From Candidatus Zambryskiibacteriota bacterium (GTDB taxonomy: Bacteria; Patescibacteriota; Minisyncoccia; Phycocordibacterales; WO2-35-19), in the NCBI GenBank assembly GCA_043799105.1, contig JAZDOB010000003.1, positions 1-38,028 on the forward strand: 38,028 nt of DNA, given 5' to 3'. Position numbers and translations under genes: made by a program. Of the stretch, positions 1 to 28,895 are shown piece by piece. Every line of letters begins with the position of its first letter. The first letter of the stretch is position 1. The notes below the pieces were generated by a model, which had not been told where the DNA came from, made no database searches, and saw only the letters and a program-made list of their open reading frames with translations.

Positions 1-31
1 CGATGAGAATGATTGTGATAATATTTTTCAT
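1..31 (-). CDS. 5' end of a gene running off the window (MKNIITIILI..., signal/TM-like start), probably the next gene of the copper cluster
   Basis: ATG at 31-29 regenerated by element copy 1, followed by a hydrophobic open frame to the window edge. Confidence 0.6.
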   Translation of the reverse strand, partial: MKNIITIILI

Positions 32-137
32 CCCGTTAGAAATAGAAGATTACACATTCTAAGTGCGCTCTCTTTTATTTTATTTAATCTGCTAATTTTA
101 TTTATCATAATTTTAATCTTCGTGATTTCTAACGGGA
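31..137 (-). mobile_element. Start-codon-targeted miniature inverted-repeat element, copy 1 (107 bp)
   Basis: 13-bp perfect TIR TCCCGTTAGAAAT/ATTTCTAACGGGA; direct repeat TTCA at 27-30 and 138-141 (TGAA on the gene strand). Confidence 0.85.
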
Positions 138-143
138 TTCATT

Positions 144-1211
144 TTAAAAACTAAACACTGGCGGAACGAGGCCGATAACCACCAGACTGTTTATGATATT
201 GAACAAGGCAAACATTATAACAATAAGGCCGGCAGACTTGAAGAAGATTCCCGATTTTGAACTATTTTTGATGCTAAACGAACTAAAACTGACGAGCGCC
301 AAGATAGGCAAAGTCCCCAGAGCAAATGAGAGCATTGTGAGCCCTCCTTGCATAAAATTGCCGGTGGAGAGAGTGAAAATCTGCATTGATTGGGTAAATC
401 CGCAGGGCAAAAAGAAAGTGGCAATACCGACCAGAAAAGGCGTCAAACTATGATTCAATTTTGAGATCCCCAAGGCGTGTCTTGATAAAAACTTTGGCAT
501 AGACGGTTGAAATTTTTTAGTGAAATGAAAAATATCCAGCAGGTTCAAGCCGAGCACAAGCATCACGAGGCCTATGATTATTCCCAATATAAATGTCCCC
601 AGAGTACCAAGTTGGAATGCCGAACCAATAGCGCCTATTACTCCGCCCAAAATAAAGAAAGAAATTATCCTGCCTATATGAAAAAGGAAAATCGGTTTAA
701 CTTTGCTCGCTCCGCGCCTGCCCGCCTGAAGCGTTCGGGCGGGAAGCTCCTGCGAAGTGGAGGCAAAAGTGGCAGACATAGAGAGCAAAAGTCCTCCGAC
801 AACCGCCATGCAAGTAGAAAGCGAAGCAATGATACCTATCACAAAAGCTGTCCCGTACGAAACACCATTACTTGCGTTTACGAGATTCACTATTCCCATT
901 TTTTGCAGGGCAACAAACAGAACAACAAAAGCCAATGCTATGGGTATGGCAATTTTAAAATCACTCCAATTTTTGTTTTTTATTTGTTTTTCCATGGAGA
1001 GAGAATGCTCTGAGAGTAATCCCGTCAGCTCTTTAGCAATTTCCGAAGGGGTCATATTTTCAAAATCTCCACAAATTTCAACCGACTGCGTTTTAAGACT
1101 TGATTTTGCAGATGAGACTTTTGGGTGCTCTATAAGCTCGCTCTCCGTCAGGAGAACGCAGGCCTGGCAGTGCATATTGTGGACGTGGAATGTGTATGTT
1201 TTGTTTGGCAC
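144..1211 (-). CDS. HMA-domain + DsbD_2/TauE-like multi-TM protein
   Basis: N-terminal MHCQAC metal-binding motif; STCMAVVGG, FHIGR, FLPCGFTQ motifs; many TM segments; GTG start. Confidence 0.8.
   Translation of the reverse strand: MPNKTYTFHVHNMHCQACVLLTESELIEHPKVSSAKSSLKTQSVEICGDFENMTPSEIAKELTGLLSEHSLSMEKQIKNKNWSDFKIAIPIALAFVVLFVALQKMGIVNLVNASNGVSYGTAFVIGIIASLSTCMAVVGGLLLSMSATFASTSQELPARTLQAGRRGASKVKPIFLFHIGRIISFFILGGVIGAIGSAFQLGTLGTFILGIIIGLVMLVLGLNLLDIFHFTKKFQPSMPKFLSRHALGISKLNHSLTPFLVGIATFFLPCGFTQSMQIFTLSTGNFMQGGLTMLSFALGTLPILALVSFSSFSIKNSSKSGIFFKSAGLIVIMFALFNIINSLVVIGLVPPVFSF
706..763 (-). repeat. Nested palindromic elements inserted in frame in the DsbD-like gene
   Basis: Inner hairpin CCCGCCTGAA-GCG-TTCGGGCGGG (721-743) inside a CTTCGC-N4-GCTTCG-type element; encodes STSQELPARTLQAGRRGAS. 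Confidence 0.65.
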
Positions 1212-1242
1212 AAGTCATTATTTTATCACAAAATTAGCTTGA

Positions 1243-2211
1243 CTATATGCCACATCCACTTTGTTGTCTTTGTTCTACAGGAGCGAGCCGTTCGGCACCT
1301 ACGTCACATCCGCTGCCACCACCTGTTTGCGTTGGGGTTGATACCTGTGATGCTATTTTGGAAAACCCCGAATTACTGGAATAATTAATTCCGAGGATTT
1401 CTTGCGGATTTACATCTTTCCATTCAATTCCCTTTCCCTCCATGTAGGTAGCGAGAGTAAGGTAGGTATCCGGAAACCAATAAGAGTTAACCGCCAAAGC
1501 CGCCTTCCACATATCTTGCTCGCTTGCTCCCTGAGAAGCCATGAGCTCCAATAGCCCGAGCATGGCCATTCCGTGGTTGCAATCCGGAAAATGAGTTGAG
1601 TTTCCGCAGCAAGGCCTGTAAATTCCCCGAGAAATTTTATCTACCATAGTCTGTTGTTCGGGAGTTAACTCAAAGAATATGTGCCTGTTATAGTGATCCA
1701 TCGCACTGCCTACTGCCACAGTCCATCCCCCGGTAGAAGCGAAACCGGCTGCTCCTCCGTATTGCGGATTTCTCATCTCTCTCGGGTCATTCAGTATTAC
1801 GTTTCCATTTGAAAGACCGAGGGCCCAGAACAGGTTTAACAAATAACCCGCGTTATCCTCAGTAATTTTTATTTTTCCTTCATTGTTCTCTGAAAGGAAT
1901 TTTTCATATTCATCCGTAAACTGGCCCGCGTAAACATCCCTGAATACTCTTTCGTCAATTACCCCCGCACTTATAAGTTTTTTGCCGAGATCTCCCCAGG
2001 TTGCAGGCAATTCCACTCCCCCCGAAGGCAGTACCCTCTCTTCCAATTCAGTTTTTTGCGCTTGTAGGGCTTTATTTCTTGCCACAATAGTTTTCTGTTG
2101 GGTGCTTGGAAGATTCACCCAATTGTTATACATCCAGGCCCCAGAGAGCATGGCTCCGGCTATGATAATAGATACCGGTATTGACAACTTAAACGATTTT
2201 TTGTTTTCCAT
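1243..2211 (-). CDS. Membrane-anchored Cys/His-motif hypothetical protein
   Basis: 322-aa ORF, N-terminal TM, RPCC..PDCNHG motif, C-terminal GGSGC and SGCGI. Confidence 0.75.
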   Translation of the reverse strand: MENKKSFKLSIPVSIIIAGAMLSGAWMYNNWVNLPSTQQKTIVARNKALQAQKTELEERVLPSGGVELPATWGDLGKKLISAGVIDERVFRDVYAGQFTDEYEKFLSENNEGKIKITEDNAGYLLNLFWALGLSNGNVILNDPREMRNPQYGGAAGFASTGGWTVAVGSAMDHYNRHIFFELTPEQQTMVDKISRGIYRPCCGNSTHFPDCNHGMAMLGLLELMASQGASEQDMWKAALAVNSYWFPDTYLTLATYMEGKGIEWKDVNPQEILGINYSSNSGFSKIASQVSTPTQTGGGSGCDVGAERLAPVEQRQQSGCGI

Positions 2212-2235
2212 ATTATTTATAGTGAATTTGTTGAA

Positions 2236-2466
2236 CTATTCTTTGCAACAATCCACTAATTTGCTGATAACTTCCTCCACCGACTTTTTTTGATTCTTTG
2301 AGGAATCTCTAAGTCCAACCGCTTTCATCCGCTTCAATGTCTCCTTGATGCCAACTTTTTGGATCTCGTTCAGGATGAGGCGCCGACGTTCGCATTTTGC
2401 GCAATGCGGGATATGAAAGGTTTTAGCGAGTTTGGCAATCGCATTCCCTAATTTTAAGGATTCCAT
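2236..2466 (-). CDS. Small hypothetical protein with HCxxC and CC motifs
   Basis: 76-aa ORF in operon spacing; IPHCAKC, DCCKE. Confidence 0.6.
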   Translation of the reverse strand: MESLKLGNAIAKLAKTFHIPHCAKCERRRLILNEIQKVGIKETLKRMKAVGLRDSSKNQKKSVEEVISKLVDCCKE

Positions 2467-2471
2467 ATTTC

Positions 2472-3131
2472 TTAATCTAGATCATTAATTTTATTCCACA
2501 TCATATCGTTTGCTATTCTCATGGTCGGATCGTCATAGACGAATCTGACGATGCCTTCTTTGTCTACGATTACGTAAGTGTGGCCAGGGAGAGAGCCGCG
2601 GTGCATCGACGAAGAGGTAGTCAGCATTCCAAGTGCCTTTGAGCTGTTAGCACCGACATCAAACATGGTTTTTGCCGCAGCAAGCTTCGGCATCTTATCT
2701 ATGGCCTTTTGCCAATCCGCGGCTGAATCGACCACCACGGATATTGCCTGCACCTCGTTTGAATTGAATCTTTCATCGTCCCCAAATGCTACAATCTGGT
2801 TCCAACAGGCCGGGTAACACATAAGCCCCTCATTAAAAAAGAGGACTGTGTATTTGTCTTTGAGATCGGTGGCTGTATATATCTTTCCATCTTTATCTTT
2901 TAGCGATATTTCCGGAAGAGGGTTGTCCACCAGTGAATTTAGTACATCGTAGTCTGCTTCCGCTCCTGCTCCACCGTGATGGTCGGATGCGCCATTTGCC
3001 GCGGCATTATTAGTCTCAGATTGAGCTGTCTGCGATGGAGCAGTTTTGTATAGGCCGAATCCCAACGCCCCTACTCCGATGACGAAAAGCAGGATTGAGA
3101 GAAACGGCAGTAATTCTTTAATTTTTTTCAT
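2472..3131 (-). CDS. Membrane-anchored AhpC/TSA-type redoxin
   Basis: N-terminal TM, thioredoxin-like fold features (CYPAC, ISVVVD, TYVIVDKEGIVRF). Confidence 0.75.
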   Translation of the reverse strand: MKKIKELLPFLSILLFVIGVGALGFGLYKTAPSQTAQSETNNAAANGASDHHGGAGAEADYDVLNSLVDNPLPEISLKDKDGKIYTATDLKDKYTVLFFNEGLMCYPACWNQIVAFGDDERFNSNEVQAISVVVDSAADWQKAIDKMPKLAAAKTMFDVGANSSKALGMLTTSSSMHRGSLPGHTYVIVDKEGIVRFVYDDPTMRIANDMMWNKINDLD

Positions 3132-4011
3132 TGTTTTGCTTGTCCGCCAAAGTTTTAACGTCGGCGGATTTACTTAGTTTGATAAACATATAAGAGACAT
3201 AGGAGATGATTCCGATAAAGATAAGGGCCCAGACGTATTCGGGGATTACTTTTACGTACCCTCCGATGGCATCTAGAAACTTGGCGTTATACAGATTCAT
3301 TTGAAGCTGATAATCGGAGTGGGTAAATAACTTATTGCTCCAAGCAAGATAAGTTATATATCCGCCCATGAGAAGGAATATTACGCTTGATATCAATTCA
3401 GAGATTGTGATTCTCCACTGCAAATTTCCAAACCCCAATCTCACTGTTTTCTTCGCATTTTTGATTTTGTCAGTCAGATTATATTTGTCCAGAAGAGCAG
3501 CAATGAGGAATAGCGGCAAGGTCATTCCAAGCACATAAGCGAGAGTGTATACCGCTCCCCACAATATAGTGCCGCTTGCAATGGAAAGAGTGAGGACTCC
3601 CGCTAAAACAGGAGCACAGCAGGTGGTGGCAATGGCGGAGAAAATCCCGAGAAGATAGATTGATGAGACGTGTCTTTTCATACCGTCTCTTACGGAAGTT
3701 GGAGTGGTGAATTTTTTGCCGAAGAGCATTGAGAGGCCGAGAACGATGAGGAATATGCCGCCAACCGTAAATATCTGATTGTGGTATTTACTGAATGCCT
3801 GGGCCAAAAATGACGCCCCCAGACCGATCGGCAAAAAGACGGTGGCAACACCGAGAAAAAATACAAAAGTCATAAAGAATATTTTGTATTTCTCTTTGAA
3901 GATGTTTGCCAGATATGACGGAAGCAGGACGGTTATACAGCATGGAGCAAAGAGCGCGGCCACTCCGGCCACGAACGCTGCCACAAGCGATGTCCCGACA
4001 AGAATTTCCAT
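3118..4011 (-). CDS. CcdA/DsbD-like transmembrane thiol-disulfide protein
   Basis: APCC..LLPSYL and TCCAPVL motifs, multiple TMs, adjacent to a redoxin. Confidence 0.8.
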   Translation of the reverse strand: MEILVGTSLVAAFVAGVAALFAPCCITVLLPSYLANIFKEKYKIFFMTFVFFLGVATVFLPIGLGASFLAQAFSKYHNQIFTVGGIFLIVLGLSMLFGKKFTTPTSVRDGMKRHVSSIYLLGIFSAIATTCCAPVLAGVLTLSIASGTILWGAVYTLAYVLGMTLPLFLIAALLDKYNLTDKIKNAKKTVRLGFGNLQWRITISELISSVIFLLMGGYITYLAWSNKLFTHSDYQLQMNLYNAKFLDAIGGYVKVIPEYVWALIFIGIISYVSYMFIKLSKSADVKTLADKQNNEKN

Positions 4012-4109
4012 AAGTGAGTGTTAGATAATAATTAGACAACTAATAAAAATATCCGGTAAGGGATACTTATGCAGCACAAAAGAAGCTCCCGCTTCTATGT
4101 GCCGATTAT

Positions 4110-4508
4110 CTAAAAAGAGGGGCTATGTTCTAAAAGAGAAAGCCAAGAGAATATTTTTTGTTTGCCGTAAGAAGAATTGACTTCCATATCCCGCACCCTT
4201 GGTCGCAGTAAATTCAGATTCAGACGAATTAAATTTTTGGAGAATACGAAAAGCAAGACAAGGGCCAAAAGCAAAAGACTAAGCAAAGCTAAATTGGACA
4301 GCGGAGCAACCATACTTGCCAAAATCGCCTGAAACGCGGATATATGATGAAAAGTAAAAGCCGCAATACTTGTCGGGCAGTCTATATCCTCAACTTCGGA
4401 CGCGATACAGCCTCCGTTGTGATTTGGCTCCATGACCATAAGTGCCGCCCCAAAGAAGGCCGCCGTAAACAAACTTATTATCAATATTAACGGAATAATG
4501 CGATTCAT
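4110..4508 (-). CDS. Hypothetical membrane protein (Cys/His motifs, C-terminal HSP)
   Basis: ORF 4110..4568; ATG at 4508 (MNRII) preferred; two TMs. Confidence 0.6.
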   Translation of the reverse strand: MNRIIPLILIISLFTAAFFGAALMVMEPNHNGGCIASEVEDIDCPTSIAAFTFHHISAFQAILASMVAPLSNLALLSLLLLALVLLFVFSKNLIRLNLNLLRPRVRDMEVNSSYGKQKIFSWLSLLEHSPSF

Positions 4509-4572
4509 AATTGGATATATCTCTATGATACCATTTTTGATTTTGTTAGTCGAGGGACCACATGACATATTT

Positions 4573-6798
4573 CTAATAAATCTTTCTCAGTCTCAAAGAA
4601 TTTAAGACAACACTAATGCTGCTGAATGCCATGGCGGCTCCGGCAAAAATCGGATTGAGCAGAATTCCGAATAATGGATACAGGGCCCCGGCGGCAACGG
4701 GGATAAAAGCAATGTTGTAGAAAAAAGCCCAGAACAGATTTTGCTTTATTATTCTCATCGTTCTCTTCGAGAGTCCGATAACTTCAGGAATGAGCATGAG
4801 ATTGCCTCTCATAAGTGTAATGTTGGCCGATTCCATGGCAATGTCTGTGCCTTCACCCATAGCGATACCCACATTGGCTTGTGTAAGCGCCGGAGCATCA
4901 TTTATGCCGTCGCCTATCATTGCGACAATTTTTCCTTTTTCCTGAAGTTCGCGCACCTTCTCCGATTTCTTGTCGGGCAAAACTTCGCTCATGATGTTAT
5001 CTATACCGACTTGAGCCGCTATGGCCTTGGCGGTGCGCTCGTTATCTCCGGTCAGCATCCAAACTTCAACGCCATTCTTCTTAAGAGTCTGTACTGCTTC
5101 GATTGACTCTTTTTTCAAAACATCAGCGACAGCGATTAAACCGATTATCTCATTGTTAACCGCTAAAATCATCGCTGTTTTGCCGTGATTTTCCAAATTC
5201 GATATTTTTTCTTCCCAGACGGTAGTGTTAATTCCATTATCAGCCATTAATTTCCTGTTGCCCAGCAAGATTTTTTTATTTTCAATAATCGCAGAAACTC
5301 CGTGTCCTGAAATGGCCTGAAATTCTTCGACTTTACTCAAGCTGATATTTTCTTCCTTTGCTTTGTTGACTATGGCTAGAGCCAGAGAATGTTCCGATTT
5401 GTTTTCTATACTGGCGGCAATTTGCAAAACATCACCCAAAATATCCGTAACAACCGGTTTACCTTCTGTTAAAGTACCCGTCTTATCCAAAATGACGGCG
5501 GTTATTTTGTTTGCAATTTCAAGAGAGGCGGCGTCTTTAACTAAAATTCCGCGACCAGCCGCGCTACCCGAGGAAACCATAATAGCCATCGGAGTGGCAA
5601 GCCCCAAGGCGCAGGGACAAGCGATTATAAGAACCGCCACAAAATTAACAAGGGCGAAAGTGAAAGCAGGAACAGGCCCGAAGGATAGCCATAGGACAAA
5701 AGTCAAAATTGCGACAATAAACACAGCCGGAACAAAATAGGAAGAGACCGAGTCGGCTAACCTTTGAATTGGCGCCTTGCTGCCTTGGGCCTCTTCTACC
5801 ATTTTAATTATGTGAGAAAGCACTGTGTCTTTGCCGATTTTTGTCGCCTGGAAAGTAAAGGTTCCGAATTTATTTATGGTGCTGCCTATGACTGCGCTCC
5901 CGATTTTTTTGTGAACAGGCATTGATTCTCCCGTGACCATCGATTCGTCAATTTCAGAGTCTCCTTCGATTATCTTTCCGTCAACCGGAATTTTTTCTCC
6001 CGGATGGACAATTATCGCATCTCCAACCTGCACTTCTGAAATTGGAATCTCAATTTCTTTTCCATTCTGTAAAATTTTGGCAGTCTTGGGCTGTAGGCCT
6101 ATAAGTTTTTTTATCGCCTCAGAAGCCCGGCCCTTCATGAGAACTTCAAAATATTTTCCCAAGAGAATCAGGACGATAATGATTGCAGAGGTGTCAAAAT
6201 AAATTGCCGGCGTCAATCCTCCCCTGCTGAAATAAGAGGGAAGCACAGTAACCGCCGCGCTGTAAAAATATGCCGCCAGTGTCCCGATGGCAATAAGCGT
6301 ATTCATATCGGCGGTGCGATATTTAAATAAGAGCCTGAGACCGCTGTAAAATTGGGAGCCGACCCAAAACTGCACCGGCGTCGTAAGCAAGAGGATAATC
6401 CAGTTGTTGTTCAAGATCTTAGGAACAAAGGAAAACCATTCCGGAAAGCTGCCCAAAAATATTAAAACCGAAAGAATGCCGCCAATTATGAGCTTCTGCT
6501 TCATTTCTTTTATCGCCCCCTTATGCTCTGCTTGTGTATGGTGAGCATGGGGATCGGCGATTAATTCTTCTTTTTCCGCAGACTCGGATTTAATATCCAA
6601 ATGGTAACCCGCTTCCTTAACTACCTTTGCAAAATCTGCCGGAGAAATAACATTCTCGTCAAATTCAACCAGGGCCGATTCCGTGGCAAAATTGACCGAG
6701 GCCGAGCGTATGCCTACATTTTTTGAAAGTACGCGCTCAATTGTCGCTACACAACTGGCGCAATGCATTCCGTGAATTTTATATGTTTCCTTTTTCAT
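4573..6798 (-). CDS. copA: Cu(I)-translocating P1B-type ATPase
   Basis: GMHCASC, TGES, CPC, DKTGT, GDGINDAP, YN and MAFSS motifs. Confidence 0.95.
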   Translation of the reverse strand: MKKETYKIHGMHCASCVATIERVLSKNVGIRSASVNFATESALVEFDENVISPADFAKVVKEAGYHLDIKSESAEKEELIADPHAHHTQAEHKGAIKEMKQKLIIGGILSVLIFLGSFPEWFSFVPKILNNNWIILLLTTPVQFWVGSQFYSGLRLLFKYRTADMNTLIAIGTLAAYFYSAAVTVLPSYFSRGGLTPAIYFDTSAIIIVLILLGKYFEVLMKGRASEAIKKLIGLQPKTAKILQNGKEIEIPISEVQVGDAIIVHPGEKIPVDGKIIEGDSEIDESMVTGESMPVHKKIGSAVIGSTINKFGTFTFQATKIGKDTVLSHIIKMVEEAQGSKAPIQRLADSVSSYFVPAVFIVAILTFVLWLSFGPVPAFTFALVNFVAVLIIACPCALGLATPMAIMVSSGSAAGRGILVKDAASLEIANKITAVILDKTGTLTEGKPVVTDILGDVLQIAASIENKSEHSLALAIVNKAKEENISLSKVEEFQAISGHGVSAIIENKKILLGNRKLMADNGINTTVWEEKISNLENHGKTAMILAVNNEIIGLIAVADVLKKESIEAVQTLKKNGVEVWMLTGDNERTAKAIAAQVGIDNIMSEVLPDKKSEKVRELQEKGKIVAMIGDGINDAPALTQANVGIAMGEGTDIAMESANITLMRGNLMLIPEVIGLSKRTMRIIKQNLFWAFFYNIAFIPVAAGALYPLFGILLNPIFAGAAMAFSSISVVLNSLRLRKIY

Positions 6799-6818
6799 AT
6801 TGTATTTATTTCATTAAT

Positions 6819-7280
6819 TTAATTTTTTCCGCTTAAAATCCAAGTAAACGGCCTGTCTATACCGCCAATGCCTTTTATAATCAGACTCAGGTGTTGGGGG
6901 TATGGCTTGATGGGGGCAAAAACCAAGACGCCCTCTCTGTGGTGTCCGCCGGGGTCGGCGCCTTCCCAGCGCAGCGGCTTATACTCCTTCCCGGGGTTAT
7001 TTATAAGTATAGTTGCTTCAACCATATCCTGATCTAATTCCACCGAGTGTGTATTCATAACAACATCAAATTTCCATTCGGTTGATTCCGCAGAAAGATC
7101 AAGAGGTGCTACTGTCACGGTAACATTTTCTCGTCCGTCTGTCCTTGTCTCCCATCGCCGCATATTTGAAACCGGAGAGACATTCTGAGTCGGACCGGAT
7201 GTTTGTTTGGGATAATAAAAAAAGAGAAATCCGCCGATAGACGCGAGTATCAGTATGGATATTGTTATTGATCTATTCAT
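6819..7280 (-). CDS. Exported hypothetical protein with THS and GGHH motifs
   Basis: ATG at 7280 (MNRSIT) overlaps the upstream stop; N-terminal TM; NTHSVEL, DPGGHHREG. Confidence 0.7.
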   Translation of the reverse strand: MNRSITISILILASIGGFLFFYYPKQTSGPTQNVSPVSNMRRWETRTDGRENVTVTVAPLDLSAESTEWKFDVVMNTHSVELDQDMVEATILINNPGKEYKPLRWEGADPGGHHREGVLVFAPIKPYPQHLSLIIKGIGGIDRPFTWILSGKN

Positions 7281-7731: not shown

Positions 7732-7843
7732 GGCCTTTATGATTTTCATCATCGTCGGAATGCTTATGAGATTCCCTCATCATAAACAAATGCATGAGCG
7801 GACAAGCAAGTAAGAGCGCAAAAAGTAAAATTTTTGTAATCAT
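7715..7843 (-). CDS. DUF2933-like small His-rich membrane protein (42 aa)
   Basis: LACPLMHLFM motif and His-rich tail; ATG at 7843 overlaps the upstream TGA. Confidence 0.75.
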   Translation of the reverse strand: MITKILLFALLLACPLMHLFMMRESHKHSDDDENHKGHGCCH

Positions 7844-8109: not shown

Positions 8110-8123
8110 AAATTTACATTTAT

Positions 8124-9272: not shown

Positions 9273-9344
9273 GGTGACTAGCCGGATTCGAACCGGCGAA
9301 AACAGCTCCACAAGCTGTCGTGTTACCGCTACACTATAGTCACC
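9273..9344 (-). tRNA. tRNA-His(GTG)
   Basis: Cloverleaf; G-1:C73; anticodon stem ACAGC-TTGTGGA-GCTGT; GGTTCGAATCC. Confidence 0.95.
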
Positions 9345-10000: not shown

Positions 10001-10082
10001 TGCTCGGGGGGAGACTTGAACTCCCACGCCTTACGGCATGCGCACCTCAAGCGCACGTGTTTACCAATTACACCACCCGAGC
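10001..10082 (-). tRNA. tRNA-Leu(GAG)
   Basis: GCTCGGG acceptor, TGCGC-TTGAGGT-GCGCA anticodon arm, long variable arm, GTTCAAGT. Confidence 0.95.
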
Positions 10083-13348: not shown

Positions 13349-13621
13349 TTATTTCCCAAGGTATGCTTTCATTTCTTCAACCGTATGAAAAACTGGAGAA
13401 AGATTCTTGCCTTCTTTTATGTCCCTAGAAATCTTTAACAATTCGCGAATCGTTTTGGCATTAAGCCTCGGTCTTTCCACAATATCCACAGTGCAATCGC
13501 CCTCAGCTAAAGATACGGTTGCGTGTCTATAATAATCCGAGAGGGAGAAACCGCCCTTTTTGGCTTGTTTTTGAGCTTTTTCCTTAATTTTTTTATCAAC
13601 TTTAAATATTATTGTATCCAT
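13349..13621 (-). CDS. RelB/DinJ-like antitoxin
   Basis: RHH-like N-terminus, C-terminal KNLSPVFHTVEEM; directly upstream of the toxin. Confidence 0.8.
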   Translation of the reverse strand: MDTIIFKVDKKIKEKAQKQAKKGGFSLSDYYRHATVSLAEGDCTVDIVERPRLNAKTIRELLKISRDIKEGKNLSPVFHTVEEMKAYLGK

Positions 13622-13700
13622 CCCGTTAGAAATAGGAAATTTTTAATTTCCGTAGTTAATTTATAATCCCCAGGATCTCGTTAATATATTTCTAACGGGA
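13621..13700 (-). mobile_element. Start-codon-targeted element, copy 2 (80 bp)
   Basis: 14-bp TIR TCCCGTTAGAAATA; direct repeat TCCA at 13617-13620 and 13701-13704. Confidence 0.85.
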
Positions 13701-13757
13701 TCCATATATAAGAAGTATAAACGTTGTATATATCTTGTCAAGTCCAAAAGTGGATAA

Positions 13758-21962: not shown

Positions 21963-22019
21963 AAGAGTATAATTATCATATACGGCTGTGGTTGATTATA
22001 AATAAACTGAATATATGAA

Positions 22020-22087
22020 CCCCGTTAGAAATTCAGAAAACTAATGGGATTCAGTAACAATAAAAAACATGAAAACTTCTAACGGGG
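22020..22087 (+). mobile_element. Start-codon-targeted element, copy 3 (68 bp)
   Basis: TIR CCCCGTTAGAA/TTCTAACGGGG; direct repeat TGAA at 22016-22019 and 22088-22091; regenerates GTG. Confidence 0.8.
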
Positions 22088-22713
22088 TGAAAAACAAATC
22101 ATTATTAATCTTAGTCATTGTTTCTCTTCTGATCTTGCCTGGTTTGTCTTTTGCCCAGTCAACAGCTTCCGGCAATACCGAATCGGAAGATGGAGGAAAG
22201 GCAAAAGAAGTCAGAACCATAAAAGATGAGATAGAAAACAAAAAACAAATTCTCCGACAAGAGATGGCGTCAAGGACGGACGCTATAAAGAGTTCCGTTC
22301 AAGAAAGGAGACAAAACGCCGTCGATAAAGTGATAGAAAGGATAAATCAGTTCGTCAGCAACATTATCAAGAGATACGATGCCGCCACCAACCGCTTGGA
22401 AATATTGGCAGACAGAATAGATTCCAGAATAACTAAAATAGAATCCGGAAATATTGACGTTTCCAAAGCCAAAGAACTTCTAACGGTCGCCAGAGCCAAG
22501 ATAGAAATAGCCAAGGCGGGTGTCAATGACATTGCCAGCACCACCAGTAATACCACGTTTGGTTCTACTACCGCCACCGTCAAAAAAGATTTTGAAGTCA
22601 TAAAAATTCAAATAGAAAAAGCCAAAGAAGATATCAGAGTGGCCCACGCCGCATTGATAGATGTCGTTGAAAATCTAAAACCGGGCCAAAATAAGCTGGA
22701 AAAAGAAAATTAA
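22069..22713 (+). CDS. Secreted coiled-coil hypothetical protein (start ATG 22069 or GTG 22087)
   Basis: Signal peptide ending SFA; helical repeats. Confidence 0.8.
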   Translation: MKTSNGVKNKSLLILVIVSLLILPGLSFAQSTASGNTESEDGGKAKEVRTIKDEIENKKQILRQEMASRTDAIKSSVQERRQNAVDKVIERINQFVSNIIKRYDAATNRLEILADRIDSRITKIESGNIDVSKAKELLTVARAKIEIAKAGVNDIASTTSNTTFGSTTATVKKDFEVIKIQIEKAKEDIRVAHAALIDVVENLKPGQNKLEKEN

Positions 22714-22732
22714 TAATTAAAAATCTAAATAT

Positions 22733-23035
22733 ATGGATACATTCAATCCAAACCAAATGCCTCCGATACCAAGCGACACAAACAAAAAATCGATGGGGCC
22801 ACTTGTTGCCGTTATAATTATTTTGGCGCTTATAATTATAGGCGGTTTGTATTTCCTTAAACAGCGATCCTCACAGGAGACATATGTACCGGCAACAGAA
22901 AATGACGCCATCACCGATTCTTTAAACACCCAGAGTAATTCCGACAACTTAAACTCCATAGAAGCAGATCTGAATGCTACCGATATTAACAACCTGGACC
23001 AAGGCGCCTCTGCCATTGACGCAGAGTTGCAATGA
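22733..23035 (+). CDS. Single-TM hypothetical protein
   Basis: GPLVAVIIILALIIIGGLYF; acidic tail. Confidence 0.75.
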   Translation: MDTFNPNQMPPIPSDTNKKSMGPLVAVIIILALIIIGGLYFLKQRSSQETYVPATENDAITDSLNTQSNSDNLNSIEADLNATDINNLDQGASAIDAELQ

Positions 23036-23060
23036 TTAGTTTTTTTGATAAACTAGCTCG

Positions 23061-24125
23061 GTGCCATACGAAGTTAAAATAAAAAAACTGCCCAAGTCGG
23101 AGGTAGAGATGGGGGCAACATTGCCCGCCGATTTTTTGGTGTCTGCGAGAAAAAAAGCTATTGGGATGTTTTCCACATCTCTTGATATTGCCGGTTTTAG
23201 AAAAGGACATGTACCGGAAAATATTGTAGTTGAAAAAATCGGTGAGGATAAAATCCTTGAAGAAGCTACCGATATCCTCTTAAAAGAGCATTTCCCCAAA
23301 ATCATGGAGGAAAATAAATTGGATATCATCGGTCATCCCAAAATTTCTATCACCAAATTAGCTTTGGGAAACCCCGTTGAATTTAAAGCTGTTTTTGCTG
23401 TTATGCCTGAGTTTGAATTGCCTGACTATAGAAAAATAGCTGCAAGTAGCAAGCAGCAAGTAGCAAGCAAAGAAAAAAGGGAAGATTTAGAAGCGGGCGA
23501 AGAAGAAATAGAAAATGTTTTGCTTCAGATAAGAAAAAATAAAGCCCATTTTGATTATCATGAGAAACATCCTGAAGACAAAACCCATAATCACGAAATT
23601 AAAGATGAGGATTTGCCCGTTTTGGACGATGAGTTCGCCAAAATGGCCGGAAATTTTAAAAATTTGGACGAACTAAAAAATAAAGTTAAAGAAAATATAA
23701 TTGCTGAAAAGAAAATCAGAAATATAGAAAAAAAGAGAGCTGAAATTATAGAAGAACTTTTGAAAAATACAAAAATAGAGATGCCGGAAATATTGATAGA
23801 AAGCGAAACTCAAAAATCTTTGGCTCAAATGGAGGGCGACGTGGAAAGTACGGGAAACAAATGGGAAGAGTATCTTTCCCAAGTCAAAAAAACGGAGGAT
23901 GATTTGAAAAAAGATTTAAGAGAAAGCTCAGAGAAAAAAGCCAAGATCCAGCTTATATTCAATAAAATCGCCGAAGTGGAAAAACTTGAACCCAATAAAG
24001 AAATTTTGGAAAACGAAGTCAAAGAAGTTTTAAAGTACTATCCCAATGCCTCCGAACAAAACGCCCGCATTTATGTCGCCACCATTCTTCTCAATTCCGA
24101 GGTGTTGAAGCTTTTAGAGAAATAA
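23061..24125 (+). CDS. tig: Trigger factor lacking the PPIase domain
   Basis: GFRKGHVP, LPVLDDEFAK; 354 aa; upstream of clpP. Confidence 0.92.
   Translation: MPYEVKIKKLPKSEVEMGATLPADFLVSARKKAIGMFSTSLDIAGFRKGHVPENIVVEKIGEDKILEEATDILLKEHFPKIMEENKLDIIGHPKISITKLALGNPVEFKAVFAVMPEFELPDYRKIAASSKQQVASKEKREDLEAGEEEIENVLLQIRKNKAHFDYHEKHPEDKTHNHEIKDEDLPVLDDEFAKMAGNFKNLDELKNKVKENIIAEKKIRNIEKKRAEIIEELLKNTKIEMPEILIESETQKSLAQMEGDVESTGNKWEEYLSQVKKTEDDLKKDLRESSEKKAKIQLIFNKIAEVEKLEPNKEILENEVKEVLKYYPNASEQNARIYVATILLNSEVLKLLEK
23442..23469 (+). repeat. Four 7-bp GCAAGYA tandem units within tig
   Basis: GCAAGTA GCAAGCA GCAAGTA GCAAGCA. Confidence 0.7.
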
Positions 24126-24271
24126 CCTCATCCCCGGCCCTTCCCCTAGGCGCAGGGGAAGGGAGAGGGATATTAGGATTATCACTATGTGAGATATGTT
24201 TCCCCTCTCCTGCATCTACTCGCCCGGCGTAGCCTTGGCGAAGCGGGGGGAGAGGGGTAAGGGGTGAGGTT
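24123..24271. repeat. Inverted pair of REP-like hairpin elements, the right one interrupted by a CTTCGC-N4-GCTACG element (24219-24248)
   Basis: TAACCTCATCCCC..CCCTTCCCCT-AGGCGC-AGGGGAAGGG; CCCCTCTCC....GGAGAGGGG..GGGGTGAGGTT. Confidence 0.7.
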
Positions 24272-24310
24272 GTATTTTGGAATAATTATGCTATACTTAA
24301 AGCATATGAA

Positions 24311-24414
24311 TCCCGTTAGAAGTCACGGAAATCAAGAGCGGGGTTATTTATAAATAATTTAATTTAGTAGAAAATTGCAGTATTTAGTAATGTGATTTCC
24401 TACTTCTAACGGGA
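24311..24414 (+). mobile_element. Start-codon-targeted element, copy 4 (104 bp)
   Basis: 13-bp TIR TCCCGTTAGAAGT/ACTTCTAACGGGA; direct repeat TGAA at 24307-24310 and 24415-24418. Confidence 0.85.
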
Positions 24415-25004
24415 TGAAAAACACACAAAATTCAATATTAGTGCCAACGGTTATAGAGAAAACTCACAACGGTGAGAGGGCTTATGATATTTATTCACGA
24501 CTTTTGAAAGACAGGATCATATTTTTGGGCGGTCAGATTGAAGATACCATGGCCAACCTCATAATCGCCCAGCTCCTCTTTTTGCAATCCGAAGATTCCA
24601 AAAAAGATATTTCCCTTTATATAAACTCTCCCGGCGGTTCGGTCACTTCTACCCTCGCCATTGTAGATACAATGAAATTTATAAAACCGGATGTTTCTAC
24701 TTTTTGTGTTGGTATCGCCGCAAGTGGCGCTGCTTTGGTCCTTTCGGCAGGAACAAAAGGGAAAAGATTTATTCTCAAAAACGCCGAGGTTATGATACAT
24801 CAGCCGATAGGCGGCACCGAGGGACAGGCGACTGATATCTCCATTCACGCCAAACATATCTTGAAAACAAAAGAGAACCTGAACAAAATGCTAGCCGAAA
24901 ATACGGGGCAACCGCTCACTAAAATCGAAAATGATGTCGAGCGAGACTTCTTTATGTCCGCCGACGAAGCCAAGAAGTATGGAATAGTTGATAAGATACT
25001 CTAA
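24414..25004 (+). CDS. clpP: ATP-dependent Clp protease proteolytic subunit
   Basis: [26 protein letters not shown]. Confidence 0.98.
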
Positions 25005-25022
25005 ACCCAGATATGGCGGAGC

Positions 25023-25063
25023 TCCCCTCGCCTAAACTAGGAGAGGGGTTTGGGGGTGAGGTC
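25023..25063 (-). repeat. Single REP-like hairpin element
   Basis: CCCCTCGCCTA-AAC-TAGGAGAGGGG..GGGGGTGAGGTC. Confidence 0.6.
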
Positions 25064-25206
25064 ATGGACAAAATTCTCTAAATTTTGTATACTACTTCTG
25101 TTATCATTAAATTTCGTAATTTCCTTTAATGTTTTTATTTTCCAATAAAAAAATCAAGTGTAAACTATTTACTGCTCGAAATTAAAGCGGGATTACAACA
25201 AAATAT

Positions 25207-26736
25207 ATGTCATTAAAATTAGCGGTACTCTTAGCGGGTTTAGCCGCTTTGGTGGGTGTCGGCTTCGGATATTTCTTAAGGTGGATTATTTCTTTGGGGC
25301 AACGTGGTTCGGTGGAACTTCGCATCAAACAGATGGAGCTTCACGCACGCGAGGAAGCCAAAAAAATTACGGCAGAGGCGGAAAACAAAGCCGGAGAAAC
25401 TTTGAGAGAAACCCGAGCCGAGTTTAAAGAAAAAGAAGAAAAAATAAAAAAGACCGAGGACCGCCTCATAAAAAAGGAGGAGTTTTTGGACAAAAGACAG
25501 CTTGATATAGACAAGGAAATCGAACAAGTCAAAGAAAAAGTCTCCGAAGTCAGAGCCATAAAGGAAAAAGTGGAGACTTTGGAAAAACAAAAATTTGATG
25601 AGCTTCAAAAGGTCTCAAATCTCTCCGAGGATGAGGCCAAAAATCTTCTACTCCGAGAAATTGAAAGGAAACACGAGGAAGATATAACGGTCAGAATGCA
25701 AAAATTGGAAAACGGCGGTAGCGAAAAAATCGAAACCAAGGCCAGAGAGATACTGACATCTTCCATACAAAGATTAGCCAATTCGGTCTCTTCCGAAGTA
25801 TTTTCTACTACCGTCAGTATTCCTAACGACGAAATAAAAGGCAAAATCATAGGCAAGGAAGGCAGAAACATAAAAGCTTTCGAAAGAGTTTCCGGAGTGG
25901 AAATTATCGTTGACGATACACCGGGACTTATCACCATATCTTCTTATGATTCGGTCAGGAGACAAGTAGCCAGAGTAGCGCTTGAAAACCTCATACAAGA
26001 CGGCCGTATTCAGCCCGCCAAGATTGAAGAGATGGTGGAAAAGGCCAAACAGGAGATAAACAAAATCATAAAAGAAAAAGGTGAAGCGGCCGCTTACGAA
26101 TGCGGAGTCTTCAATCTTGACCCGAGAATTGTTTCCATCTTGGGGCGATTGCATTTCCGTACTTCTTACGGCCAAAATGTTTTGCAACATTCCATTGAAA
26201 TGTCTCACATCGCGGGAATGCTCGCCACCGAAATCGGCGCCAACGTAGCCATCGCTAAAGCCGGTGCCCTGCTTCACGATATAGGCAAAGCAGTAGACCA
26301 CGAAATCGCCGGTACTCACGTAGATATCGGCAGAAGAATTTTACAAAAATTCGGAGCTGATGAAAAAATAATCCGCGCAATGGAATCGCACCATGGCGAA
26401 TATCCTTACTCCACTTTGGAGTCTTACATCGTGCAATCGGCCGACGCCATTTCGGGCGCCAGACCGGGCGCCAGACGCGACAGTGTTGAAAATTATTTGA
26501 AACGCTTGAGTGAATTGGAAGCCATCGCCACCACCATTACCGGCGTGGAGAAAGCTTATGCTTTGCAAGCCGGACGTGAACTCCGTATCTTCGTCACTCC
26601 TTCTCAGGTCAACGATGTTGAAGCCAAAGAAATCGCCCGCGATGTCGCCGTCCGTATCGAAAACGAACTTAAATATCCGGGTGAAATCAAAGTTGTTGTC
26701 ATCCGCGAATCAAGAACGATTGAATTTGCGAGATAA
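25207..26736 (+). CDS. rny: Ribonuclease Y
   Basis: N-terminal TM, coiled coil, KH (IIGKEGRNI), HD (LLHDIGK), ARPGAR. Confidence 0.98.
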   Translation: MSLKLAVLLAGLAALVGVGFGYFLRWIISLGQRGSVELRIKQMELHAREEAKKITAEAENKAGETLRETRAEFKEKEEKIKKTEDRLIKKEEFLDKRQLDIDKEIEQVKEKVSEVRAIKEKVETLEKQKFDELQKVSNLSEDEAKNLLLREIERKHEEDITVRMQKLENGGSEKIETKAREILTSSIQRLANSVSSEVFSTTVSIPNDEIKGKIIGKEGRNIKAFERVSGVEIIVDDTPGLITISSYDSVRRQVARVALENLIQDGRIQPAKIEEMVEKAKQEINKIIKEKGEAAAYECGVFNLDPRIVSILGRLHFRTSYGQNVLQHSIEMSHIAGMLATEIGANVAIAKAGALLHDIGKAVDHEIAGTHVDIGRRILQKFGADEKIIRAMESHHGEYPYSTLESYIVQSADAISGARPGARRDSVENYLKRLSELEAIATTITGVEKAYALQAGRELRIFVTPSQVNDVEAKEIARDVAVRIENELKYPGEIKVVVIRESRTIEFAR

Positions 26737-26793
26737 CAGGAAAGGTCCTCTTACTTTTTCCTTTCGGAAATTTCAAAGTCGCGCCTTCCCTTA

Positions 26794-26925
26794 CTAACTC
26801 ACCAAACCTCTCTTAATTTAAGAGAGGGTTTAAGGTGTCAAAGACGGTCTTTGACACTTTTTAATAAAAAGAAGACGAAGTCATCCTTAAATTCCCCCTT
26901 AAGTTAAGGGGGATTTAGGGGGTTA
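26794..26925. repeat. REP-like inverted pair enclosing a perfect palindrome (26835-26857), likely terminator region between convergent genes
   Basis: CCTCTCTTAATTTAAGAGAGG; GTGTCAAAGAC-G-GTCTTTGACAC; TCCCCCTTAAGTTAAGGGGGA. Confidence 0.65.
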
Positions 26926-28404
26926 TGTCAGTTCATATTCCCTGTTTTCTTCCGGATATATCGCATCCACATCCAAATAATCGCGGAGGCGCTGAGTGAG
27001 AAATAATGAAGATTTCGGTTCGCCCATTATGACAAATACTCGTTTAAGTCCTCTCCCAACCCTCTCCTTGTCAAGGAGAGGGTCACGCGAAGCGAGGGGT
27101 GAGGTCAGAGTATTTACTTTCTCCACAAATTCCAGCAAATGCTCAGAATCTTTATGAGATGAGTAGCCTGTTATATTTTCTATGGTCGCTCTGACCTTAA
27201 TCTTCTCTTTTTTTAATCTTTCCATTTTTCCATCTTTAAATATTTCAATCTCTTTGGCTCCGTCTTGAATACGCCTGCCCAACGTCCCCACCGACTGATA
27301 ACCCACTAAGATAATTGTCGCTTTGGGGTCAGGCAGATAATGCGCTTCATGATTGACTACCCTGCCCCCTTCCGACATTCCCGAGCCAGCCAAAATTATT
27401 TTAGCCCCCGATATTTTTTCTATTTCTGCAGATTCGGAAGCTCGCCCCACAATGCGCAGTCCTGGGAAATCAAAAATATCGTCCCCTTCTTTTATTTCTT
27501 TTTTAACTGATTCCTTGAAATCCTTTTGATATTTCTTATAAATATCCGTCACCTTTTCGGCCAGAGGTGAATCCAAAAATACGGGAATTTGAGGAATTTC
27601 TTTGTCCTCAACCATATTATTTATTTCGTAAAGCAAAACTTGAGTTCTCTCTATTGAAAATGCCGGCATCACTATCGTCCCGCCTCTCTTTATGCCATCC
27701 AAAATGGCTTTTTTTAATTTTTCTCTCCTTTCCGATTTGCTTTCATGATTTCTGTCTCCATAGACGCTCTCCATTACCAGATAGTCCACATCTTTAGGAA
27801 ACTCTGTGTCAGGCAAAAGAGGCGAAGGCGAATTGCCCAAATCCCCCGTGAACGCTATTTTAATCTTTTTTCCTTCCCTCTCCTTGTCAAGGAGAGGGTC
27901 ACGCGAAGCGAGGGGTGAGGACAAAACCATAATAGCCGAGCCCAAAACATGCCCCGCATCCTGCATCTCCAAAAAACAATTATCAAAAAGTTCTATTTTT
28001 TCTTCATAATTTCGCCCTTCCCAGAGAGAAAAAGTTTTGGCTATATCTCTATCTTCAAAAAGAGTTTTGTCAGGATGTCTCGTCTGCATCACTTTTAAGG
28101 CATCTGTAAGCATGGGCAAAGCGAGCTCCATGGTTTCTTTAGTAGAAATTATTTTACCTTTAAAACCGCTCCGCACGAGCTTGGGTACTCGGCCAATATG
28201 GTCCATATGGGCGTGAGTAATCAAAAGAAAATCAACATCGGCTGGATTATATTTAAAGGGCTCAAAATTTTTTTCCTCAGCAAACCTCGCCCCCTGCAAA
28301 AGACCGCAATCAATCAAGATCTTGTGGCCACCGTATTCGTACATTATGTTTGCTCCCGTCGTTGAGCCGACTCCGCCGTAAAATATAAGTTTAGGGTTGC
28401 TCAT
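26923..28404 (-). CDS. MBL-fold beta-CASP ribonuclease (alternative start 28440 inside element copy 5)
   Basis: THAHMDHIG, AGHVLGS, FTGDLG, MESVYG, GSGMSEGGR, YSSH. Confidence 0.93.
   Translation of the reverse strand: MSNPKLIFYGGVGSTTGANIMYEYGGHKILIDCGLLQGARFAEEKNFEPFKYNPADVDFLLITHAHMDHIGRVPKLVRSGFKGKIISTKETMELALPMLTDALKVMQTRHPDKTLFEDRDIAKTFSLWEGRNYEEKIELFDNCFLEMQDAGHVLGSAIMVLSSPLASRDPLLDKEREGKKIKIAFTGDLGNSPSPLLPDTEFPKDVDYLVMESVYGDRNHESKSERREKLKKAILDGIKRGGTIVMPAFSIERTQVLLYEINNMVEDKEIPQIPVFLDSPLAEKVTDIYKKYQKDFKESVKKEIKEGDDIFDFPGLRIVGRASESAEIEKISGAKIILAGSGMSEGGRVVNHEAHYLPDPKATIILVGYQSVGTLGRRIQDGAKEIEIFKDGKMERLKKEKIKVRATIENITGYSSHKDSEHLLEFVEKVNTLTSPLASRDPLLDKERVGRGLKRVFVIMGEPKSSLFLTQRLRDYLDVDAIYPEENREYELT
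27060..27104 (-). repeat. 45-bp in-frame palindromic element, copy A
   Basis: Identical to 27876-27920; encodes SPLASRDPLLDKER. Confidence 0.9.
27876..27920 (-). repeat. 45-bp in-frame palindromic element, copy B
   Basis: CCCTCTCCTT-GTC-AAGGAGAGGG TCACGCGAAGCGAGGGGTGAGG. Confidence 0.9.
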
Positions 28405-28469
28405 CCCGTTAGAAGTTTTATCATCATTAGTTTTAATCATAATCTATATATTGTGGACTTCTAACGGGA
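28404..28469 (-). mobile_element. Start-codon-targeted element, copy 5 (66 bp)
   Basis: 13-bp TIR TCCCGTTAGAAGT/ACTTCTAACGGGA; direct repeat CTCA at 28400-28403 and 28470-28473. Confidence 0.85.
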
Positions 28470-28895
28470 CTCATTTATATTTTTTAAAACTATTTGTCTG
28501 TTATATTCTCTGATGTAAGCATAAAAACAACCGGCTATCGCGCCCAAAAAGTCCATCATCAAATCCATCGTCAAATCAAAAGGATAATTCGCCTTGGCCA
28601 CCATAGTCTGCTTGAAAATTAGTTCGTAAGTTTCCCAGGATACAGCTACGAACATCGCGCCCAAAACAGAAATTAATAAGAATCTCGCCAGACTTCTTTT
28701 TGAAGGATTAAAATAATCGGAAAAGAAATAAAGCCAGACAAAAAGTAGCGACAGAGCAACACCGCCTATGAAATGGACCAAGCTGTCAAACTCGTAAATG
28801 GACCAATAGAGATGATTGACGGTAGCGATGACATGAAGAATTCCGACAATCAGAAACAAAACAAGCATCTCCGGAAAAAGTGGTTTTTTGAACAT
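28461..28895 (-). CDS. Four-TM membrane protein (VanZ/DUF2238-like H..WE..D pattern)
   Basis: DSLVHFIGG, WETYE, DLTMD. Confidence 0.75.
   Translation of the reverse strand: MFKKPLFPEMLVLFLIVGILHVIATVNHLYWSIYEFDSLVHFIGGVALSLLFVWLYFFSDYFNPSKRSLARFLLISVLGAMFVAVSWETYELIFKQTMVAKANYPFDLTMDLMMDFLGAIAGCFYAYIREYNRQIVLKNINESR

Follow-up and report, generated by a model that had tools for sequence, protein, structure and literature searches.

The stretch of DNA analysed here (the window: 38,028 nucleotides, GenBank contig JAZDOB010000003.1 of assembly GCA_043799105.1, from a Candidatus Zambryskiibacteriota bacterium) carries five short elements with terminal inverted repeats (TIRs), each lying exactly in the start codon of a gene and rebuilding that codon at its gene-side end. 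This observation is confirmed. It is probable, in our view, that the five are MITEs (miniature transposable elements with inverted repeats) of an element of about 280 bp that encodes a GIY-YIG nuclease and parasitises translation starts. Whether this amounts to a class of mobile element that has not been described before is a more evenly balanced question: it would be a start-codon parasite of about 280 bp, with a single-domain, Ssn-like GIY-YIG nuclease as its mobility enzyme and without promoter, start or stop of its own, spread horizontally over Patescibacteria, DPANN archaea and other phyla, and its MITE swarms would take some 7% of all gene starts in some genomes.

We infer that the nuclease drives mobility, by cutting at the target and/or at hairpinned ends, that the cut is staggered by 4 nt, and that a translational relay protects the host gene. 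Insertion would take place between the A and the TGRA of a translation start, in the direction of the gene, with duplication of 4 bp (T-G-R-R). The element would then borrow the start codon of its host, make a stop from its own target duplication and hand the ribosome over to the rebuilt start.

The genome of the window (G000) comprises 543 kb in 32 contigs, of which the window is contig C32. G009, a congener of a different species, served as a whole-genome replicate, and the genus set consists of 17 genomes, G000 and 16 congeners.

Miniature elements that rebuild the start codons they interrupt

On the gene strand all five elements read A-TGRR-YCCCGTTAGAAR...YTTCTAACGGGR-TGRR, with TIRs of 13-14 bp and a 4-bp duplication of TGRR type (Table 1). 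Because the last base of the element is A (G in copy 3), an ATG or GTG is rebuilt ahead of an intact host open reading frame (ORF). A preliminary description of the window, made from the letters alone, had reported the five elements with their repeats, their duplications and rebuilt codons, and their position at gene starts, and all of this was found again in 5/5, the rebuilt codons opening the real genes named in Table 1. It had also read the interiors as oriented with the gene, correctly so, with AGAARTCACG at the far end and TYCTAYTTC at the gene end. Among the host products, ClpP is assigned by PF00574 (E 9e-83), and the signal-peptide protein behind copy 3 had no Pfam match. The old ATG of copy 1 lies 1 nt past the stop of an upstream HMA/DsbD_2 gene. 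Positions 1-137 of the window overlap G000:C1:4868-4978, where copy 1 is seen again as C1:4868-4974; the break between contigs C1 and C32 was probably caused by this repeat, and the host gene of copy 1 continues on C1.

Table 1. Position of the five miniature elements of the window and of the old and rebuilt start codons on their two sides
Feature	Position	Strand	Description
MITE copy 1	31..137	-	107 bp, subfamily A; start codon of cupredoxin-like gene running into contig C1
Copy 1, far side	138..142	-	duplication TGAA 138-141 (on +); old ATG = complement of 140-142
Copy 1, gene side	27..31	-	duplication TGAA 27-30; rebuilt ATG = complement of 29-31, its A being the element's last base
MITE copy 2	13621..13700	-	80 bp; start codon of 90-aa NikA-like/ribbon-helix-helix (RHH) gene
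Copy 2, far side	13701..13741	-	duplication TGGA 13701-13704; old ATG = complement of 13703-13705; promoter-like TTGACA-16-TATACT
Copy 2, gene side	13617..13621	-	duplication TGGA; rebuilt ATG = complement of 13619-13621; opens ORF 13349-13621
MITE copy 3	22020..22087	+	68 bp, C...G ends; start codon of signal-peptide protein gene
Copy 3, far side	22015..22019	+	old ATG 22015-22017; duplication TGAA 22016-22019
Copy 3, gene side	22087..22091	+	rebuilt GTG 22087-22089; duplication TGAA 22088-22091
MITE copy 4	24311..24414	+	104 bp, subfamily B; clpP start codon
Copy 4, far side	24289..24310	+	extended -10 TGcTATACT 24289-24297, 8 nt, old ATG 24306-24308, duplication TGAA 24307-24310
Copy 4, gene side	24414..24418	+	rebuilt clpP ATG 24414-24416; duplication TGAA 24415-24418
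MITE copy 5	28404..28469	-	66 bp; start codon of beta-CASP/metallo-beta-lactamase (MBL) RNase gene
Copy 5, far side	28470..28474	-	duplication TGAG 28470-28473 (on +); old ATG = complement of 28472-28474
Copy 5, gene side	28400..28404	-	duplication TGAG 28400-28403; rebuilt ATG = complement of 28402-28404

Over the genome as a whole, the element pattern is far beyond chance. The TIR pattern was compared with the same pattern written backwards in 41 genomes, and gave 21 matches in G000 while the control gave none in any of the 41. The genome scan and tally of flanking 4-mers that the preliminary description had proposed yielded 42 distinct elements of 62-279 bp in G000, 37 of them at start codons. 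In 35 of the 42, an exact duplication of 3-5 bp lies at the start codon of an ORF no shorter than 35 aa (TGAA 21, TGGA 7, TGAG 4, TGCG 1, TGA 1, TGAAA 1). Two others stand at the starts of long ORFs with a decayed left (old) copy of the duplication, one sits within a second element, at the internal ATGAA of the latter, one lies 4 nt ahead of an ATG, and three are elsewhere. The occupied genes, read from their translations, include murG, murC, proS, tsaE, rpmJ, rpmC and an rpsD-like N-terminus. The replicate genome holds 25 elements, 21 of them at start codons, and every copy that can be oriented, in each subfamily, is co-directional with its host gene.

Decaying copies are seen at G000:C30:6865-6970 and G009:C10:55500-55600. 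At the rpsD-like start, a decaying copy has lost the old ATG (TATAA) and the gene still begins at the rebuilt one; in one decaying copy of G009 the GC part of the right TIR is gone (TTTCTAATAAT-ATG). A subfamily of 56-69 bp with two internal hairpins, often with C...G ends, occurs in several genera outside start codons, with duplications of TTAA, TCAA, TTGA or TATG (G000:C13:17178-17239, G000:C11:6789-6850, G009:C3:50782, G009:C9:15830, L001, L002, L009 and L010).

The TIR of the family has a sharp limit. Each of its first 13 positions pairs with its counterpart in 95-100% of 181 distinct elements, and from position 14 on complementarity is no better than random. The covariation noticed in the window extends to this whole set: positions 1, 11, 12 and 13 change on both sides, with G-T pairs at 1% or less. 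Covariation that is nearly free of G-T fits DNA hairpin pairing or homogenisation of the ends better than RNA pairing. In subfamilies A and B a second stem follows the TIR after a CAC/T internal loop (GAAGATTA/TAATCTTC in A, GGAAATC/GATTTCC in B); the sequences differ and the complementarity is kept, which suggests that an extended hairpin shape is conserved and not the ends alone.

The elements are insertions

The elements are real insertions with target duplication. Empty orthologous ATGRR sites, which the preliminary description proposed to look for, were found at both loci where we can show them here: the clpP start, filled in G000, is uninterrupted (ATGAAAAAC) in 16/16 other genomes of the genus and empty in 80/80 best metagenome loci (74-95% protein identity), and the ruvX start, empty in G000, is filled by the 280-bp element in G008 and G015. 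When the inner element of a nested pair is taken out in silico, the outer one becomes a perfect copy of 106 bp that has a duplication of its own, and tandem insertions into a rebuilt ATGAA also occur. The family is patchy, being present in 9/16 congeners and a few other genera among the 41 relatives. The start of one gene (MEDLDTL...) holds a 106-bp copy of subfamily A in G000, whereas the copy in G009 is unrelated and measures 79 bp, and the murG start is occupied both in G000 and in G037, which belongs to another family of the order. A search of G000 for footprints of excision, in which the TGRR of an ATGRR is repeated directly after it, returned 3/277 ATGRR starts and 11 sites genome-wide, which is about chance by a rough estimate.

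These data bear on the idea that the repeats are domesticated, serving the host as hairpins that gate translation or, like those of the Ssn/NTS system of Neisseria, as marks for recombination or uptake of single-stranded DNA (ssDNA), with the nuclease as a partner acting in trans. The Ssn nucleases are small single-domain GIY-YIG proteins that modulate Neisseria transformation, and hairpin repeats present in many copies flank their genes (PMC11893778). The hairpins described below do sequester start codons, and many of the occupied genes are core genes. However, presence is patchy among congeners and the occupied sites differ by lineage; duplications and nested or tandem copies speak of repeated insertion; the MEDLDTL... 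start holds different subfamilies in the two species; and the host genes form no coherent functional set. The SRM motif of the Ssn system has one match in G000 versus 1.8 +/- 1.1 in shuffles. We therefore regard domestication as improbable.

A parent element that encodes a GIY-YIG nuclease

The preliminary description had seen no transposase in the window and had suggested looking for long copies with the same ends enclosing a transposase or nuclease. The parent is indeed absent from the window, and its likely autonomous form lies on another contig of the same genome, with a GIY-YIG nuclease and not a classical transposase: at G000:C20:40289-40567, a single ORF takes up an element of 279 bp that has the same TIRs. 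Its product is an 86-aa protein made of one complete GIY-YIG domain, of the UPF0213/SLX1/Ssn-like branch, that matches PF01541 with 60.9 bits (E 1.5e-16, cut-off 22.6). An AlphaFold2 (AF2) model of the protein (pLDDT 91) has UPF0213, Slx1, HIGLE and I-TevI as top fold matches, and the nearest solved structure in a PDB profile search is UPF0213 BH0048 (E 3e-10). Mean column identity of the nuclease is 69%, with Y5, T17, G18, R24, E62 and others invariant.

The same architecture is found in G008, G015, G014, G037, G038, G027 and G053. A length-constrained TIR pattern, run on 401 sampled genomes of the order (223 genera), detects the parent in 23 of them (G000 and 22 others, 22 genera), with no match for the control. 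All 89 distinct long forms measure 262-292 bp and hold the nuclease ORF only; the parent, some 275-283 bp in length, has a TIR of 13 bp, YCCCGTTAGARNN. In species-representative genomes there are at least 523 confirmed nuclease loci, with 65-80% protein identity among the matches listed, which come from many Patescibacteria lineages, Omnitrophota, Planctomycetes, Syntrophales, Thermodesulfovibrionia, a metagenome-assembled genome (MAG) of Clostridia and a Woesearchaeote. In phage records we found only two distant matches, below 60% identity. Flank anatomy was studied in the best 80 of the loci in species-representative genomes. Both TIRs are present in 75 of them and the duplication of 4 bp is exact in 44; the left flank has an ATG in 41, and TGAA follows on the right in 52. 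In this set, T...A-ended elements sit on TGRR, and C...G-ended ones mostly on TAAA/TAGA just ahead of the start. Start codons are rebuilt by the parent as well, 51/78 parent elements restoring the start of a long co-oriented ORF and 11 more having such an ORF no more than 40 nt away; where the host has visible GGAGG-type sites, the parent sits just upstream of that site.

The MITEs share with the parent the 13-bp TIR, the gene-side TTTCCT, which in the parent represents C-terminal codons of the nuclease, and the far-side TCAC. On the strength of these shared terminal and subterminal bases we read them as internal-deletion derivatives of the parent.

Other small GIY-YIG genes were encountered during the survey. 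At G009:C10:54842-55110 (L078), a gene 54% identical to the nuclease lies between a stop codon and the next ATG, within a different inverted repeat of about 22 bp (CCCCACaCCAACTTAGCTTA...); this suggests that inverted repeat, GIY-YIG gene and inverted repeat form a general layout with several repeat lineages. Among small paralogues without these TIRs, L076 and L082 adjoin a GGAGGAAAGTCCGAAC motif, apparently the 5' end of RNase P RNA, L079 and L080 adjoin tRNA-like sequence, and several have in-frame stops. A conserved gene downstream of the paralogues L083, L084, L086 and L088 starts ATGGATCCCGTAGTAG..., MDPVV...; the likeness to ATGGA with the left TIR behind it (MDPVR...) could be coincidence or shared ancestry.

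Borrowed starts, borrowed stops and a proposed translational relay

How the parent is expressed can be read from its frame, in the same 89 distinct full-length elements. The nuclease frame has no stop of its own and runs through the right TIR (...FLSLTG), and in 80/89 it is the first three bases of the flank that supply the stop (TGA 68, TAA 10, TAG 2). Usually this is the TGA of the duplicated TGAA, which overlaps the rebuilt ATG (ATGA). The TGG site is used by 1/89 full-length elements versus 7/35 of the G000 MITEs (TGGA), and this rarity, confined to the parents, fits selection for a stop codon where an ORF must end. On the left, 59/89 elements have an ATG in their flank. In 30 of these 59 the host ATG is in frame with the nuclease and open into it (M-NPVRD-...), nine of the 30 lacking an ATG of their own, and in 10/59 the ORF of the host ATG stops between -4 and +10 nt from the nuclease ATG. 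In many copies, then, the parent ORF is fused in frame to the original ATG of the host through the NPVRD encoded by the TIR and, with no stop and often no start of its own, the parent would be expressed from the promoter and start codon of its host.

No Shine-Dalgarno enrichment was found upstream of the 532 called starts of G000 (GGAG 31 versus 24 in a control stretch, with G depleted), and TANNNT peaks 6-7 nt ahead of the ATG in 139 of these starts, and TGnTANNNT occurs in 60; judged from these signatures, many G000 genes look leaderless. The 16S rRNA had to be taken from a congener, since the G000 assembly has none: its 3' end in G002 (L202 3000-3042) reads ...GGAATATTTCAAG, without the CCUCC anti-Shine-Dalgarno. 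In a further congener (G003, L203-L206) the 16S match comes in four pieces, as if insertions interrupt it. Loss of the anti-Shine-Dalgarno motif in part of the Parcubacteria is reported in PMC9297842. In window copies 2 and 4 a -10 box, promoter-like in copy 2, ends 8 nt ahead of the old ATG in a leaderless layout, and the congeners have TGnTAnnnT 6-8 nt ahead of the uninterrupted clpP start. With no Shine-Dalgarno signal and this leaderless look, the old AUG would stay the place where ribosomes load.

The preliminary description had proposed that the element replaces the 5' untranslated region of the host gene. This is not what we find: the old ATG and the promoter stay in place, and the element would instead become a short translated stretch between the old and the rebuilt starts. 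A promoter carried by the elements themselves had also been considered and was dropped, as a promoter scan gave no promoter-like site within the five window elements directed at the host genes.

In RNA folding, the outer stem of the TIRs forms in 30/31 copies (median dG -23.8 kcal/mol, median z -5.7), with the A and U of the rebuilt AUG inside the predicted stem and the old AUG 4 nt outside it. A ribosome starting at the old AUG would enter the left repeat arm, melt the hairpin that buries the rebuilt AUG, and then either terminate beside this AUG and restart or read through in frame; opening of the hairpin from the old AUG may alone be enough for host expression. The frames of the elements allow for such a passage. 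That of the old ATG always reads across the left arm (M-N/D/S-P-V-R-...), and the right arm with its duplication (TTCTAACGGGATGA) offers a TAA 4 nt ahead of the ATG in frame one, a TGA overlapping the ATG in frame two and an in-frame fusion in frame three. Subfamily C has one ORF open over the whole element and ending at ATGA; subfamily A has two ORFs in succession, of 9 and 23 codons, with the TAA of the TIR as the stop of the second; subfamily D and copy 5 (at 28440) have an internal ATG in frame with the gene, as does copy 3 (at 22069).

We put the relay to a test that counted only passages from ATG to ATG with gaps of at most 10 nt, against the reverse orientation and 200 shuffles of the interiors. 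In G000, 15/31 copies pass, compared with 7 in reverse and 7.5 +/- 2.1 in shuffles, none of the 200 shuffles reaching 15. In G009, 9/18 pass, compared with 6 in reverse and 4.7 +/- 1.7 in shuffles, and 6/200 shuffles reach 9.

The sequence AUGRR, present in identical form at both feet of the strong stem (AUGRR ... AUGRR), could also be seen as take-off and landing sites, and the insertion would then be silent at the RNA level, either excised like an intron or bypassed by the ribosome from the old to the rebuilt AUG. Translational bypassing in phage T4 gene 60 has a similar layout. We find this very hard to sustain: Rfam covariance models at gathering scores match two tRNA genes on the minus strand of the window (9273-9343 and 10001-10082) and none of the elements, whose length of 62-107 nt leaves no room for the core of a group I or II intron; the scarcity of G-T in the covarying TIRs points to pairing in DNA or to end identity; and open, conserved frames across the elements would be unexpected if these were skipped. 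A ribosome that translates the element and is relayed to the rebuilt start remains the reading that we prefer.

Why start codons

Once the elements are removed in silico, ATGRR occurs in G000 at the first ATG of 277 of the 539 called genes, at 422 intergenic and at 3814 coding sites. If all non-coding ATGRR were equal targets, starts would be expected to hold about 40% of surviving copies, when in fact they hold 35 of the 36 that are flanked by ATGRR (<1e-10, by our own arithmetic). Start regions have an A/T-rich signature of their own, and in a flank profile that was trained on the occupied sites, leaving out the core, starts score much higher than the rest. Sequence context and purifying selection could therefore provide most of the specificity: a nuclease reading some 10-15 degenerate bases, together with the loss of intragenic insertions, could be sufficient. 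Nested and tandem insertions fit targeting and selection alike. Co-orientation with the gene could likewise be mechanistic or selected, and the relay mostly fails in the reverse orientation. The preliminary description had spoken of a non-autonomous element with translation-start targeting, or of strong selection for such sites. The non-autonomous nature of the element, its target duplication, its restriction to starts and its co-orientation are upheld by these data; going by the flank profile, start specificity could come from targeting, from selection or from both.

Is the nuclease the mobility enzyme?

Several observations weigh against the five elements being MITEs of a nuclease-driven start-codon parasite. 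GIY-YIG nucleases are hydrolytic, and we know of none that acts as a transposase; perfect TIRs together with a duplication of 4 bp are classically the mark of DDE transposases. The assemblies of G009, G007 and G016 are rich in MITEs and have no copy of the TIR-type nuclease, and in the genus the nuclease is found in 4/10 MITE-bearing versus 0/7 MITE-free genomes, a weak association only. In G000 itself the nuclease element has the TIR variant AGAGAC and the MITEs have AGAAAT or AGAAGT. As for expression, 30/89 full-length elements have no ATG in the left flank, and in 18 of the 59 that do, the frame opened by the host ATG runs over the nuclease ATG in another frame. The relay test is failed by about half of the copies, G009 is not clearly above shuffles, and the relay gaps of subfamily B span 18-69 nt; as copies of one subfamily are not independent in this test, its support for the relay is real but partial. 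Finally, the flank profile at its lower-quartile threshold leaves 161 starts, 67 intergenic and 382 coding sites.

Some of these points are what one would expect if the MITEs and the 280-bp form were moved by an unseen DDE transposase of a classical cut-and-paste family, with the GIY-YIG gene as a passenger. Families such as IS1380/piggyBac have CC(C) ends and 4-bp duplications, perfect TIRs with duplications of 3-5 bp are typical of DDE elements in general, no strand-transfer chemistry is known for GIY-YIG enzymes, and no TIR-type nuclease is seen in the G009 assembly, rich as it is in MITEs. However, the PF01609 profile, the only transposase profile run on the 17 genomes of the genus, matched none of the MITE-bearing ones, a result to be read with the caution that MAGs often lose copies of insertion sequences (IS); its single match lies in G013, a genome without MITEs, and is an unrelated fragment of truncated length. 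No pair of TIRs more than 400 bp apart exists in G000 and G009, where unpaired ends are decayed copies and half-sites, and 89/89 long forms hold the nuclease ORF alone, fused into both TIRs and kept across phyla. With PF01609 as the one transposase family searched, we consider a hidden DDE transposase unlikely, and retain the nuclease as the candidate source of mobility.

Two of the half-sites are found in G009:C10:62008-63131, a region that overlaps G009:C5:1-135 (contig overlap). There, a gene with a Fic motif (HPFxxGNGR) is flanked by a 63-bp element and two solitary half-sites resembling the left TIR, each followed by a terminator-like hairpin.

Significance and comparison with known systems

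If our reading is true, a nuclease family joins the known transposase chemistries. The start codon would be a safe harbour, a target present hundreds of times per genome in which damage is undone by rebuilding of the codon and coupling of translation. The tiny GIY-YIG proteins, a very large and mostly unannotated family, would be offered a concrete role as enzymes of selfish elements. The elements would also constitute a natural experiment on translation start in bacteria of the candidate phyla radiation (CPR) that lack Shine-Dalgarno pairing. For annotation they are a warning, as starts can be split by insertions of 60-280 bp, so that genes are given a false start and small ORFs are called that do not exist. 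There could, moreover, be a use as a tool for a nuclease with a short hairpin or a start-like sequence as its recognition site.

Of the systems described so far, Ssn/NTS comes closest (Chenal et al., Nat Commun 2025, PMC11893778). Ssn is a 94-aa single-domain GIY-YIG nuclease that cuts only ssDNA next to a hairpin repeat; its genes are flanked by such repeats, amplified to hundreds of copies, and the authors call the NTS-ssnA-NTS layout IS-like. Both systems have a single GIY-YIG domain of about 90 aa (86 aa here) and no DNA-binding domain, and Y5, Y16 and E62 here stand against the Y6, Y17 and E64 that were mutated in SsnA. In both, the gene is bracketed by hairpin-capable inverted sequences and the repeats occur in tens of copies near genes, rarely inside them. 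The palindrome ends (ATTCCC...GGGAAT there, A-TCCC...GGGA-T here) show a resemblance only. Unlike Ssn, which has a local hairpin on each side, the element has one 13-bp TIR pair that spans the whole gene, an ORF fused to its TIRs and to the start and stop of the host, 4-bp target duplications, exact insertion in start codons that are rebuilt, and MITE derivatives. The published regular expression for the SRM is, as seen above, not enriched in G000, where the repeats differ from it in sequence and layout, and term searches of PMC11893778 gave no 'start codon', 'duplication' or 'Patescibacteria'.

Our miniature copies resemble bacterial MITEs in being short, non-coding and multi-copy, with TIRs and target duplications, and in their descent from an element that is longer, has a gene and shares their ends. 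The Correia/nemis elements of Neisseria are an example, also alike in their RNA hairpins and their influence on neighbouring genes. Here, in contrast, the parent encodes a GIY-YIG nuclease and not a DDE, HUH, serine or tyrosine transposase, and the copies are nearly all in start codons, in one orientation, and probably translated instead of intergenic.

GIY-YIG homing endonucleases, such as I-TevI in group I introns and the free-standing T4 Seg genes, share the fold (I-TevI being one of our fold matches), horizontal transfer and a selfish life at host genes with minimal harm. They differ from the element described here, which is a single domain without DNA-binding domain or intron, has TIRs and duplications, and occupies dozens of unrelated loci and not one cognate allele. 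Rickettsia palindromic elements are palindromic, inserted in frame in protein genes and translated, adding peptide segments within the protein, and no coding parent is known for them. The translation of palindromic repeats within the host message would be common to both, but the start-codon site, the stop overlapping the rebuilt start and the coding parent are found here only.

IS200/IS605 elements use HUH Y1 chemistry and have neither TIRs nor target duplication, unlike the elements studied here. With their REP/PATE derivatives they are alike in small size, DNA-hairpin ends, miniature derivatives and a short specific target (discussed in PMC11893778). One paper on Patescibacteria, in a passage of PMC12455944, mentions GIY-YIG proteins only as horizontally transferred genes. 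A full-text search of the published literature, with supplements outside its range, found no account of MITEs inserting in start codons or of TIR-bounded GIY-YIG elements, in agreement with the preliminary description, which had not recognised a described family. What appears new is the TIR-bounded element with an Ssn-like nuclease and its start-codon MITEs; the known kinds that it joins are MITEs and IS-like elements.

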